The position numbers were made by a program. 64,000 nt of DNA from Escherichia coli. Its GTDB lineage: Bacteria > Pseudomonadota > Gammaproteobacteria > Enterobacterales > Enterobacteriaceae. The DNA lies in assembly GCF_022846255.1 (NCBI RefSeq), contig NZ_AP025682.1; one strand, 5' to 3'. This document shows positions 30,301-36,300 of this stretch, piece after piece. Positions within the stretch are counted from its first letter, which is position 1, and the number at the start of each line of letters is the position of its first letter.

Positions 30301-33300
30301 CACCAGGGCCATCCATATAGCCGCCTTTACCGAACATGCCGCTCAGTCCGACCGGTTTTAATGCTTTGTCGATAGCGGCTTTGTAGGTAGCGTCACCTTC
30401 GTACAACTCGTACGTTGATGGACACGCTCCAGGTTGTTCAGCCCAGGCTTCCGGGTTACAACTAAGAGCTTGTTTTACGGTAGCCGCTTCTGCGTTAAAG
30501 TTAAAGCCCGTGAACAGAACCGCCAGAAATAACATAAGGGTATGTAAACGTTTCATTGTAAATATTCTTCCGTTGTAAATGGCGCTGGAAAATTTCTCAT
30601 CAGTGAAACCTTCCGGAAGTTTCCCCCCCTTGTATGATGTATATCGCCAGTATTTTATTTCATCCCGGCTGTAATTTTTATATTCCCCGGCACGTGCAAT
30701 AACGCTGACCAGAGATATAAGGCTCATTAATAACTTTACAGGTAATTTCATAATTAAATTTCCAGTGAGTGAATTGACAGGTGAGGGGTAAAACTTTCTC
30801 TCAGGTAATATATATCTGAAAATATTTTCAATAACACCAGACAGGAAAAACACCACCACAGGCGGTGGCGTTTCTTTGGGGCGTCTTTATTTAATCCGGG
30901 CCATCGCGTTTCTCAGTGCCAAATCTGCCTCTTCCGTTATATCCAGGCTTTTCTGCAATACCGCCTCTGACCGGGTCAGTGCCTGACGTGCTGCCAGCGG
31001 TTTCCGGATATGCTCCATCGCCAGCATCGTGTCTTCATAGCCCTGCTGACGCCAGGCGTCGGTATGTGCCGATGTAAAACTGAGCAGACCGCCGCTGTTG
31101 CCACCATCACCTGCATATTTCAGCCTTTTCCGGGGACGGATCTCAAGGATTGTGGTGTCCGGAAAAGCCTGGCGATCCCATAAAGAACCGTCACTCAGAT
31201 GCGTCACAATCACCATATTGCATCCGGCATCGACCAGAGGCGTCACAGGGGTATTTCCCTGCATATTTCGCCATCCTCCCATACCACCATCACCGAACAT
31301 TGTCCCCTGAACCTCACGGGGACGGAACAGCAGGGGCAGCGCGGCTGACGCAAGCAGAGCCTCTTTCTGCTGTCCGCGGGGCAGGCTCTGGATATGCTGA
31401 AAAACGGCGTTTTTCGTGGTTCCGACACCCAGTTCAGCACGAATGCAGTCAATAATATCCTGCATGCCCCCTTCTGTGGGGTACAGCGACACATACAGCG
31501 GTAGCCCGTCTGCCAGAGCATCAGTATCAAGATAATGATCCATCAGCGCTGTCAGGGGCTCATCTGACAACAACGGCTGAGCCATCAGATTGTCAAACCC
31601 GTTGATTGTCGATATATGGCGAAGAAGCGTCGTAAGCAGTGCTCCTGCACGTCCGGGGATCTGGCAGAGGTTCATTGCCTGGAACAATTTTTTCAGCAAT
31701 GAAAAGTAAACCAATCTGTTTACCGACAGCACCTGATTATTCCCCAGATGATCCCAGAGCGCCTCCAGGCGTACGGCAGCTTCTGACAGATCGGTAGAGG
31801 CCGCGATAATGGCACCATTGAATGCGCCAATGCTGGCCCCTGAAACCATGCTGATCTGTGTACCACACTCTGCCAGTGCCTTAACCACTCCCGCCTGATA
31901 AGCGCCCACCGCCCCGCCACCGGACAGCACCAGCCCCGTTTTCATTTCTGTACTCATGCAGCCCCCTTCTGAAATATTTCATCGACCATACTTTCAGAGA
32001 GGCGTTCTGCAGAGCAGAGGCGAGGCATGCGAACCGGTAAGTGTTCTGCAGCCTGCGTGGTTGACCAGATCACCGGATGCTGCTCTTCACTGCACCAGTC
32101 TCCCAGCCAGTTAATCGCGTCATGCCACTCGTTATCTGCCTGCTCCCGGCCCTGACCACCAAGCCAGTCCAGAGTGTTCAGACGCACGGTTGCACTACCG
32201 CCACTCTCCTGTGCCATCTGCGTTAATGCTTTATGTCTGAGAATATCCAGTAGCTGGTTAACCTGGCCTGTTTCGCTCTGACGTATCACATCACCAAACG
32301 CGCCCCAGCGAAGCTCTTCAAGTGCCACATAACAACGTCCGGCAGGGGAAAATGACGCATATCGCCCGGCGCTCCACCATGAGAATATCTGCTCAAGATG
32401 TAACTGCGCCCGCTGAACCTGGTCAACACGGTGGAGTTTTTCTTCAAGATGATTCAGTTTATGGTGAACCTGATCGGCCAGGGTGAGTAACTGCTCCCGC
32501 GTATCTGCGGAATAATGCGCCAGCCTGGCTGTATCACTGACCAGTGAACTGACCCTGTCGTTTACCCGGGTAATCGCGTAGTTTGTGGTGGCAAGTGACG
32601 TTGTCATCTCCGTCAGCCAGCGCAGGGACGCCTCAACGCCCTGTGCAAGCGACGCATTGATGGCATTCTGCCGTGCAGCGCCTTCGCCGGTCAGCCCCTC
32701 TTTTAAACGCCGGAAGAACGTGCGCTCTCCGGCCGTGCGGATATGCTCCTGTGCAACATCGATTCCGTTTGCGAAATCAACCACAAATTTTTCAGGAAGA
32801 CAGGTGAGTACCTGACATACCCGGTTATCAGCAATTTGTTGAATAAATGGTGAAGTCACAGCATTGTCTCCAGCTCTTCCCTCAGCGCCTTACTGTCAGT
32901 AATGAGCTCAGGAACCCTTTCATTTAATGCCTGAAGTCGCCCGGTAAGCCGTTCCTGCGCCTGCTGATCGCGTTTATGATCTTCAGAGCTCTGAATCAGC
33001 GTGTTACGCAGTTGTTCAACTTTCTCCCTGAATGCGCAGAAAAAGGCATCGATTTCCTGGCGGACGGGCTGGTTAATATCCTGCTCAATGGATGCCTGCA
33101 GCTCCCCGAAATATGCCCGGGTCAGTGACATAACTTCCTCTCTGACCTTGTTGATATTGATCACGCTGCGACTCACATCCTCGTCATAGTTTTCCCAGCC
33201 CAGGTCACTGGTGCCAAACCATCGACAAACGGTTCCCCATACGCCACTCTGCCGACGGCGACGGGTGACGGTCTCCGTTCTTTCCTCCATAAGCGCACTC

Positions 33301-36300
33301 AGATTTATTTTTACCGCGAGCCGGGTCTGTAACTGGCTGACTGCCGGAAAACTGATTTTTACGGTAAAGCCCTCATCCTCCAGGCGGGCATTGATGCGAC
33401 CGGCAATGTTTTCTGTGGCGTACAGGGCCGTGCCACGAAAACCTGTTTCAATCCCGCTGACGATTTTCTCCAGCTCAGGCCGGAACTGTGCTTCAGCCTC
33501 ACGGTGCAGGCTGGTCACGGTCGATTCGATTTGCGTCATCAGTTCAAGGGCTTCCCTGCGATCACTGAATTTTATTTCGGGGCTGTCCGGGGCAAAATCT
33601 CGTTTCCTGTAATCCTCCCGGCCCTGGTTGTTGATACCGGACCATTGAGAAATTTTCCCCCATAATCCGGACTGAGACCTTCGTTGTTCTGCGTCTTCTT
33701 CCTCCAGCATTTGCTGTTCTTTGCGTTTACCGCTTCTGAAATAGTCATTCAGCTCCTCTTCCAGTGAGGTGCAGACCCCCGTCAGTAATTCCCGGGTTTT
33801 AGTATCGATCTCCTCCATGGCCATTCTGACATCAGTGGTCATCTGCTCCTGACAGTCCGCGATTTCCCGGATATCCGCAAGCAGGCTGGTGATATGCGAC
33901 TGCAGTGACTGAATGCTTTGCTGTAGCCCCTGATGGCGTAACAACAGGTATTCACTGATATTTTCTGCATTCTGCATCAGTTTTGCGGCGGCAGAGTCAA
34001 CCGCCAGTGCCGCAGCTCTGGAATGTGAGCTCTGTATGACTTCCGTTATCAGTTGATCGATAAGTGAGCCTTCCCACAGGTCTGTCGCCCCTTCAGTTGC
34101 CAGTTCACTGTCTTTACAGACGTATTCTTTTTTCATGCAACCGAAGGCACCTCTGATAAAATCATCGACCCAGGCTTCATCAACAGGAAGGGTTCCGTTT
34201 TTCCGTAACTCATGAAGCGCACGGTTAGCCAGGTATGCCTGGCGTGAGGATCCGGGATAAACGCGGGAGGCGGGCAGCACATCGCTGTTCAGCATTGCCG
34301 GAACTTTCTGGCGTACGGCATCTGCCCCATCGCCATTGCGGTCTTTCTCATCAAATTTATTGACCAGTACAAACAGGCGGCCGGCTGATACGTCAGCAAT
34401 GGCATTAAGCTCTTTACGGACGTCTTCATCCGCTTTTGAGTTCATCTGGGTGTAATCCATCACAGCCAGAACCGCAGAGGCTTTCTGCAGTTGATCCCGC
34501 ATCATCACTTCCATCTGCGGTTGTCCGGCCTCATTAGGGCCGGGGGTATCCAGCAGTGTGAGTGTTCCCTGGCATGCATCCATCCCCACCAGATGGCTGA
34601 ATTCCACGTCGATCACCGGCAGTTTCTGCACTTCTGCGTATTCATCAAAAGGAAATTCAGTCCCCATTGCCGCAGCAAGACGAACCAGATCGTTTAACGA
34701 TGCCAGTCCGGTAAAGATTTCCTCCTCCCCGTGGTATTCATTTTTGAGCCAGCCATCATCCGTCAGAATATCCAGCAGTTCGCGGGTATCCCCGGTTTGC
34801 TGCAGGGTCTGTGCGACCTGCTGTCCTGCCGGGGTGGCGAGTTTTTCCTGCAGTGTGATTAATAAATTGCGGACAGGCTGAATATGTTCCAGATGGAGAA
34901 CCGGCTCAGTTTTTCCGGGAACGTGGCGGATGAGCGTCGGTACAGAGGTCATGGGGCGGTTACGGTTAGGCAGAATTTCCTGCCCCACAATGGCGTTGAT
35001 GGTGGTTGATTTGCCTGCTTTCATCGTGCCGACAACAGCCAGCACCATCTCCCTGCGGGCGGTTTTGATTTGTTCGCCCTCCAGCTCCTCAATTCTTTTC
35101 AGTGCTTTCTGTTTATCAAAAAGCAGTCTGTTTTCGTTCTTACTGTCAGATAACACATCTGGCTCCTCAACCATTTGCCGGAGCAGATTAATGTTCAGTT
35201 GCAAAAGTCGGTCGGCTTCATCACAAAGCAGGGCGATGTTCTTTTCGTGCATTATTTAACCTTCCTAAGACGCATTTTCATGACAACCACGGAGGAGGTC
35301 ATTTACTACAAACGATCGTTTATAACGATCGATATGATAGTAACGATCGATGTATTCTATTAACTTGAGAAACACAACGCAAGGGGACAACCCGGGTATG
35401 GCTGCGTTTGCATAGTGTTTTCATGGAGTTAAAAATCTGTAACAACAGCCTGGTACATCACCACCGGGTTCAGAAGAAAATCCAGTTCCATACCGCGCGG
35501 GCAACAGAGACCACCGAGTCACGGACGGCACGCAGAACCGTGCGTGCAACAGAGGCAATACAGGCGCTCTCCGCCGTGTCAAATATCCGGTCCACCGCAC
35601 CGGTAAACTGTTCACGGGCCTGAGCGCGGACAGATTCCGTGCGCAGCTCGTCCTGCAGGCGGGTCATCAGGGGACTGGCGGCATGGTCGGGAAGTGCTGT
35701 CATGAGCGCACTGACCAGCGTATCCAGTTCCCAGCCGGTGCGGGCCGATACGGCAACAACCCGATGTACGGGCCGGAACAGACGGAATACCGCCTCCGTT
35801 TTTTCGCGAATGTTCTGTGCCTGTGCGGGAGAAGGCTGAATACCGGCCATATCCCATTCATGGCAGGGCTCCGTTTTATCGGCCTGCATCACCACAAACA
35901 GTACCCGCTGATGTCCCCGGTGCAGGATGTGTCGCCAGAAATACTCATCCACAGACAGGGCACGGTCATCGGCTTTAATCAGCCACAGTACCAGGTCCAG
36001 TTCGGGCAGAATGTCACGGTACAGGGCTTCATACTCTGCATCCCTGTCCCGGCTCTCGCCCACCCCGGGCAGGTCAGTGATAACCATGCTGTGACCATGG
36101 CCATTCAGACGGAAGCGCTGCACTTCCCGGGTGCCGGCGTGAACATCACTGACCGGGGTGATCTCCCCCTGAAACAGCGCATTACAGAGTGAGGATTTAC
36201 CGGCCCCGCTTTTACCCATAATGCCAGGCACGGGTTCGTGACTGGTGAGTTTGCGCAGATGTTCCAGGATGTGACGGGAAAGTGAGTAAGGCAGGGAGGA

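Follow-up and report, generated by a model that had tools for sequence, protein, structure and literature searches.

The 64,000-nucleotide stretch of Escherichia coli DNA analysed here (assembly GCF_022846255.1, contig NZ_AP025682.1; hereafter the window) carries three adjoining genes that encode a dynamin-like GTPase, a member of the RdcB/YjcZ family and a patatin-like phospholipase. An original prediction, made from the sequence alone, had placed three open reading frames (ORFs) at 30887-35252, and these coordinates, all on the minus strand, were reproduced by our analysis. Just upstream of this triad lies a putative promoter and switch of the agn43 type, which the prediction missed and which is new here. 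The genes and regulatory elements are as follows.

32856-35252, minus strand: dynamin-like GTPase gene (798 amino acids, ATG start)
31954-32859, minus strand: RdcB/YjcZ-family gene (301 amino acids, GTG start)
30887-31957, minus strand: patatin-like phospholipase gene (356 amino acids, ATG start)
35314-35382, minus strand: predicted promoter and switch with homology to the regulatory region of agn43/cah, located by alignment to the upstream regions of K-12 flu and EDL933 cah
35382-35377, minus strand: -35-like element TTGCGT, shared with flu and cah
35359-35354, minus strand: -10 element TAGAAT, shared with flu and cah
35348-35345, 35330-35327 and 35317-35314, minus strand: three GATC sites, inside OxyR half-site matches

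The genes overlap by four base pairs at both junctions, which supports their description as a translationally coupled unit. An ATGA overlap had been proposed for each junction; the one between the middle and patatin genes does read ATGA, but the one between the dynamin and middle genes reads GTGA, with the GTG start placed over the dynamin stop. RefSeq annotation by the Prokaryotic Genome Annotation Pipeline (PGAP) gives the same three coding sequences in the E. coli 55989 and SMS-3-5 regions, which are 99.8-100% identical to the window. Because the three ORFs are long and conserved across many genera, we judge from this conservation that they are genuine genes rather than chance ORFs.

The 798-residue GTPase belongs to the dynamin superfamily, with a match to Pfam Dynamin_N (PF00350, 1.6e-17) over residues 71-299. 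Its G1, G3 and G4 motifs had been called intact and are read directly from the translation (GTMKAGKST at 75-83, including K81; DTPG at 235-238; NKFD at 298-301), as is the G2 threonine, T102. A resemblance to CrfC/YjdA that had been noted for the N-terminus extends over the full length of the protein: the NCBIfam CrfC model NF007368 is matched over residues 1-797, and identity to K-12 RdcA/CrfC (YjdA) is 33% over 744 residues. The model score of 556 bits lies below the curated cut-off of 1146, so by sequence comparison the protein is a full-length RdcA/CrfC paralogue and not an equivalog. The C-terminal motif RRxxGxWGxxCxxFxTxDWGWExY is kept in both the triad and RdcA clades. No transmembrane or hydrophobic segment was found in the dynamin (Kyte-Doolittle maximum of 1.16 over 19 residues), a result compatible with an amphipathic motif, and RdcA itself is reported to be soluble (PMC6510439). 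A sequence search of solved structures with this protein returned only a P-loop match to BDLP.

Two similar Arg/Trp-rich motifs occur in the dynamin at residues ~520-550 and 664-690, RRSQSGLWGKISQWSG and RRRRQSGVWGTVCRWFGTSDLGWENY. The second is kept in the triad and RdcA clades, and the first falls in a variable insert. They are possibly a partner- or membrane-binding element.

The middle protein, previously described as having no recognisable domain, is instead a clear YjcZ/RdcB member: Pfam YjcZ (PF13990) is matched at 4.7e-70 over model positions 1-272 of 272, and identity to K-12 RdcB is 30%. This full-length match bears out the accompanying suggestion of a YjcZ-like partner. The AlphaFold2 model of the RdcB-like protein is all-alpha, with a mean predicted local distance difference test score (pLDDT) of 76.7 and a predicted template-modelling score (pTM) of 0.79, and a sequence search for an informative relative among solved structures found nothing. 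The YjcZ family is small, comprising 497 clusters at 50% identity among 1.84 billion representatives.

The third product, of 356 residues, matches Pfam Patatin (PF01734, 8e-24), and an intact GxSxG/DGG dyad, as had been claimed, is evident in its translation. The motifs are GGGAVG at 13-18 (the GGGxxG oxyanion element), GASIG at 40-44 with S42, and DGG at 223-225 with D223; in a set of 34 orthologues, each of the three shows conservation of at least 95%. Past the catalytic domain comes a long C-terminal helix, and the N-terminal region is similar to PlpD, VipD and ExoU, its nearest solved relatives. No signal peptide or transmembrane segment was found in any of the three proteins, which points to the producer's own membrane as the substrate of the lipase.

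Linkage of the three genes was assessed by an alignment scan for YjcZ in one genome per species, which gave 79 loci whose six-frame ORFs were searched with the three window proteins. All 29 gamma- and betaproteobacterial loci of the triad (non-RdcAB) type have co-directional dynamin, YjcZ and patatin genes in identical order, while all 50 core RdcAB loci of Enterobacteriaceae have dynamin and YjcZ genes without a patatin. The triad-type loci come from Escherichia albertii, Pantoea, Erwinia, Budvicia, eight Pseudomonas, Allochromatium, Thiodictyon, Pontibacterium, HdN1 and metagenome-assembled genomes (MAGs), from the betaproteobacteria Macromonas, Aquaspirillum, Paenacidovorax, Gallionella and Yanghanlia, and from a Comamonadaceae bacterium. 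Seven further independent look-ups, in taxa including Pectobacterium, Methylomonas, Klebsiella and Yersinia, keep the order and strand of the triad, and the most distant YjcZ member examined still precedes a patatin gene. Co-occurrence in other genomes, on which the idea of a three-gene unit depended, is supported by these loci.

Three departures from the standard arrangement were observed. At one locus (L097:7001-9630) a 532-residue fusion of DUF3944 and YjcZ is followed by the patatin, with parE and parC upstream and no dynamin gene, which suggests that YjcZ and patatin are the tighter functional pair. In a MAG labelled Synergistaceae (L034:1290-6356), an ORF of 1688 residues holds two complete RdcA-like dynamin modules in tandem ahead of YjcZ and patatin, so that the cassette has here a fused form reminiscent of DynA. 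In Methylomonas koyamae (L006:8617-8916) and at locus L007, an extra ORF of 99 residues with no Pfam match stands between the dynamin and YjcZ genes.

The closest characterised relatives of the first two proteins, RdcA and RdcB of K-12, serve as activators of the diguanylate cyclase DgcE, a function that needs GTP hydrolysis; RdcA binds its partner RdcB as well as the DgcE MASE1 domain (PMC6510439). The triad shares with RdcAB the same two families, the gene order, a 4-bp overlap, the G1 lysine, the G2 threonine and the conserved WG...DWGWExY residues. However, it always has a third, co-translated patatin gene, it is patchy and borne on islands or plasmids whereas RdcAB is core, and its predicted promoter is an agn43-type switch whereas RdcAB belongs to the FlhDC/FliA regulon. 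In a neighbour-joining tree of the dynamins, midpoint-rooted and without bootstrap support values, the RdcA clade is nested inside the triad clade. This nesting hints that core RdcAB may be a derived pair, descended from a triad that lost its lipase.

We tentatively propose, as the best of the readings considered here though one held at somewhat less than even confidence, that the triad is a GTPase-gated cytoplasmic phospholipase. Its most likely role would be to defend the cell, in an abortive-infection manner, against phages or other invading DNA, or at the least to disrupt the membrane under stress. The RdcA-like GTPase and the RdcB-like partner would bind each other in the manner of K-12 RdcA and RdcB, and the nucleotide or assembly state of the resulting complex would license the co-encoded patatin phospholipase A, which would then hydrolyse phospholipids of the cell's own inner membrane. 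Gating of an enzyme is favoured because the RdcA/RdcB homologues activate DgcE by direct contact. The same homology, full-length for both proteins, can be read differently: the GTPase pair might sense the GTP level and regulate an enzyme in trans, be it a diguanylate cyclase or some other, with the patatin as an accessory generator of lipid signals. The motif RRxxGxWGxxCxxFxTxDWGWExY, common to both clades, fits such signalling, as does a GGDEF diguanylate cyclase gene that lies on the same strand 660 nt upstream of the triad at a single locus (L028:3009-4226). However, a cyclase neighbour is found at only one of ~34 loci, and every member of the triad clade has the patatin, whose catalytic residues are intact, which argues for the lipase as output; signalling of this kind appears improbable.

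In Escherichia the proposed gated lipase would be wired to the epigenetic switch of the island in which it resides. The 217-bp region from the backbone GTPase gene to the dynamin ATG (35253-35469) is homologous to the flu and cah regulatory regions, and just past the -10 element the three GATC sites lie over a predicted OxyR operator, as in an agn43-type promoter. In scoring of OxyR half-sites, ATCGATCGTTACTAT-N7-ATCGTTATAAACGAT reached 16 of 20, and this pair covers all three GATCs. OxyR bound to the operator of agn43 represses transcription, and Dam methylation of the GATC sites blocks OxyR, which yields heritable ON and OFF states (PMC3764049, PMC2909390). The switch elements are invariant across four diverged variants of the triad-upstream region, including an E. 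albertii sequence, and across the two regions of the Ag43 family. Because these elements are homologous to those of flu and cah, expression of the dynamin operon is probably phase-variable under Dam and OxyR. Only a heritable sub-population would then express a potentially self-damaging module, and phase variation would limit its cost.

The resemblance to the agn43 (flu)/cah switch takes in the -10 TAGAAT, the -35-like CTTGCGT, the three GATCs, the OxyR half-sites and the position right after a yeeP-type gene. Unlike those copies, the one in the window would drive the dynamin operon instead of an Ag43 autotransporter gene (in O157 probably both), and its leader is short (~60 nt) and has no isrC-like region. 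In 1981 E. coli genomes the switch stands directly before the dynamin gene; in a further 635, an Ag43/cah gene with its own switch ends 110 bp before the dynamin gene. Every sampled E. coli triad junction is of one or the other form. In EDL933, the same switch follows a yeeP-type GTPase gene and would drive cah, then the triad, across a 110-bp gap without an obvious terminator.

The position of the E. coli cassette directly behind Ag43/cah or its switch also bears on a different explanation, that the triad is a membrane-remodelling or envelope module and not an immune one, which reshapes, repairs or vesiculates the inner membrane in the Ag43-ON, aggregating or biofilm sub-population. Studies cited in PMC12922286 tie bacterial dynamins to vesicle formation and membrane repair, RdcAB act in control of the biofilm matrix, and housekeeping genes neighbour the cassette at several loci. 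However, linkage to Ag43 is specific to Escherichia, the three-GATC box being absent from every non-Escherichia locus, and no membrane-binding segment was detected in the proteins. A patchy, multi-copy, island- and plasmid-borne distribution is likewise atypical of housekeeping envelope functions. We consider an envelope function unlikely, and retain the GTPase-gated lipase as the preferred interpretation.

The distribution of the 4.4-kb unit is that of an accessory element. At a coverage of at least 80% it is present in 2442 of 5426 complete E. coli genomes (~45%), with up to five copies per genome, and its carriers include O157:H7, 55989 and B2 lineages. Forty-four plasmids carry a YjcZ homologue, among them a variant 62.1% identical to the window protein that gave the same score on plasmids of Klebsiella, Enterobacter and E. 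coli. In other genera its insertion sites are unrelated to one another; some are CP4-like or integrase/DUF927 islands, and one lies between ileS and lspA, beside Uma2 and Fic. No YjcZ homologue was found in 50,697 phage genome records, which rules out the triad as phage cargo, a possibility raised by the 'prophage' label on CP4-44. The triad is a self-contained, horizontally mobile three-gene cassette.

On the Enterobacter plasmid pRHBSTW-00114_3 (L093, 9009-13991), IS1 abuts the dynamin gene of a triad variant, and the dynamin coding sequence is shortened to 2232 bp compared with ~2385 bp in full-length orthologues. The context of the plasmid triad, an accessory region flanked by IS1, held no functional clue.

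The locus in the window is the CP4-44 site between yeeX/tmaR and cobU. In K-12, CP4-44 has the order yeeP-isrC-flu-yeeR-yeeS-yeeT-cbeA-cbtA-yeeW, and the window has GTPase-[triad]-two small ORFs-DUF932-antirestriction-yeeS-yeeT-cbeA-cbtA-yeeW; the two orders agree with the earlier placement of the triad in the flu (Ag43) slot. The YeeP/YfjP GTPase, DUF932, antirestriction, RadC-like YeeS, YeeT and CbeA/CbtA genes, together with the cobU-yeeX location, identify an island of the CP4-44/CP4-57 type. The features that border the triad within this island are as follows.

35470-36381, minus strand: YeeP/YfjP-type small GTPase gene, part of the island backbone and outside the module, with NCBIfam matches to Era/MnmE-like P-loop GTPases
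30841-30867, minus strand: predicted terminator-like hairpin and T-run from a consensus scan, 20 nt past the patatin stop
29642-30751, minus strand: two small ORFs of 227 and 136 amino acids with signal-peptide-like N-termini, between the patatin and DUF932 genes

The backbone GTPase gene shares its 3′ end, ATTTTCTTCTGA, in the alignment, and its stop codon is followed immediately by the switch, an arrangement also seen between yeeP and flu in K-12. The shorter of the two small ORFs occupies 29642-30052, and the longer reading frame, 30068-30859, has two consecutive signal-like segments, MKLPVKLLMSLISLVSVIARA... and MKRLHTLMLFLAVLFTGFNFNAEA.... Neither these ORFs nor a 387-residue ORF upstream has a Pfam or NCBIfam match. 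Among the loci compared, the small ORFs occur only in the E. coli loci L001 and L002; EDL933, which was outside that comparison, has no coding sequence annotated between patatin and DUF932. As they are absent from E. albertii and from every non-Escherichia triad locus compared, we rejected these two secreted-looking ORFs as members of the module; they are a variable E. coli add-on outside the conserved triad. Farther upstream, beyond the GTPase gene and the 387-residue hypothetical gene, the island is interrupted by an IS150-type element of the IS3 family and AAA ATPase gene fragments (39505-40874, about 38000-39200), named from the SMS-3-5 annotation; 55989 has IS66 there.

Residence in a CP4-44-type element, among its toxin-antitoxin and antirestriction genes, could indicate that the triad provides selfish stabilisation (addiction), or an inter-bacterial or virulence lipase carried by the island, and the nearest solved relatives of the patatin N-terminal region, ExoU, VipD and PlpD, are virulence factors. 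However, the proteins lack a secretion signal, the triad has neither a secretion system beside it nor a conserved small gene of antitoxin type, and the cassette is also found outside mobile elements, between housekeeping genes. Addiction or virulence is thus the least probable of the explanations that we considered.

A defence role for the gated lipase is favoured over other functions because of the accessory, mobile and multi-copy distribution described above, the presence of WYL regulators and the proximity of restriction-modification or candidate defence genes. Regulators of the HTH-WYL-WCX class, which are known to co-localise with defence systems (PMC9122601, PMC9122588), are encoded upstream, in the orientation of the triad, at 8 of 34 loci, and at six of these the distance is no more than 2.1 kb. 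The triad adjoins a type I restriction-modification methylase gene in Pseudomonas putida (L029), the PADLOC candidate PDC-S24 in HdN1 (L037) and SNF2/Zac-like genes in Pantoea and Erwinia (L011 and L036). In E. coli strain MP1, EcoKI and Druantia are on the same islands as the operon (PMC12922286). Association with defence islands is only moderate and is not universal.

Comparison with described systems indicates that the triad is distinct from those that use its individual components. Eleos consists of two consecutive dynamin-like genes with no lipase, and its GTPase-dependent phage defence is documented (Millman et al. preprint). Like Eleos and DynA of Bacillus subtilis, the triad places a dynamin-superfamily GTPase in an accessory locus. 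Membership in Eleos was rejected because that system has two dynamin-like genes and no lipase, while the window has one dynamin together with YjcZ and patatin (the two dynamin modules of the MAG locus L034 are fused); in PADLOC, LeoA gave no match and LeoBC matched only 60 residues around the P-loop (8.6e-5). The cyclic-oligonucleotide-based antiphage signalling system (CBASS) was rejected as well: no cyclase ORF is present, and NF041079, the NCBIfam model for the CBASS lipase, scores 19.5 bits where its cut-off is 200. In PADLOC, the match to a phospholipase effector is confined to the patatin N-terminus (4e-5). CapV is the patatin effector of CBASS and responds to cGAMP, and Legionella VipD is a patatin activated by the Rab5 GTPase. 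With both, the triad shares the patatin fold, the Ser-Asp dyad and, as proposed, the control of a latent lipase by a sensor, but the candidate activator in the triad is encoded in cis and is a GTPase pair of the bacterial dynamin-like type.

Several observations weigh against a phase-variable, GTPase-gated defence lipase. PADLOC v2 found no system-level match for the three proteins, in agreement with the original prediction, in which no described system combining a dynamin with a patatin effector was known. Our literature searches found no functional test of the operon and no experiment linking the cassette to phage resistance. In K-12, RdcB makes no contact with DgcE, whereas RdcA does (PMC6510439), so the roles that we assign to the triad GTPase and its partner are uncertain. 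An AlphaFold2 run on a YjcZ-(GGGGS)6-patatin fusion, made with a 23-row paired alignment, gave a pTM of 0.50 with altered packing of the YjcZ N-terminus and thus no confident docking, a result that speaks neither for nor against a direct complex. The cassette can be dispensable, since the dynamin gene of EDL933 is frameshifted, and its neighbours at several loci are housekeeping genes (miaA, polA, folC, ileS, ars). Finally, the first and second GATC sites are spaced by 18 nt in the window compared with 19 nt in flu and cah, and OxyR binding could be altered. In the EDL933 island copy examined (L094, 10970-16312), cah and the dynamin gene are both annotated as frameshifted pseudogenes.

Searches of the literature on dynamin-patatin defence, agn43 and dynamins, the O157 triad, and BrxR with patatin or dynamin returned nothing relevant except one RNA-seq paper from 2026 on strain MP1, which noticed the operon and named it a putative defence system (PMC12922286). 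When two MP1 derivatives were compared in that study, this operon topped the 'differentially expressed' clusters in every medium (PMC12922286). The paper makes no mention of Ag43, OxyR or phase variation. Because the switch is present and a 'right colony' pitfall is documented for agn43 (PMC3764049), the difference in MP1 may reflect clonal ON and OFF states rather than regulation by the prophage Kapi1. The co-regulated cluster published for MP1 comprises five genes (PMC12922286), which suggests possible read-through of the terminator-like hairpin past the patatin gene.

A more specific form of the preferred interpretation is that the triads constitute a phase-variable abortive-infection family in which the GTPase/RdcB pair senses GTP level, membrane state or a phage component and unleashes the lipase, with core RdcA/RdcB as a domesticated, lipase-less derivative. 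We regard this form as possible and at present doubtful.

The combination of genes described here has already been noticed in print and is uncharacterised, and the cassette is carried by about 45% of complete E. coli genomes, frequently in more than one copy, and by Klebsiella and Enterobacter plasmids. If our interpretation is correct, the triad would represent a new mechanism, wherein a bacterial dynamin-like GTPase pair gates a phospholipase, and it would give the poorly understood RdcA/CrfC-RdcB pair a functional context by ancestry. The Dam/OxyR phase-variation regulon of E. coli would likewise reach beyond Ag43. Transcriptome or phenotype differences at this locus between 'isogenic' strains, including the reported 'up-regulation in lysogens', may then reflect the colony that was picked rather than regulation.

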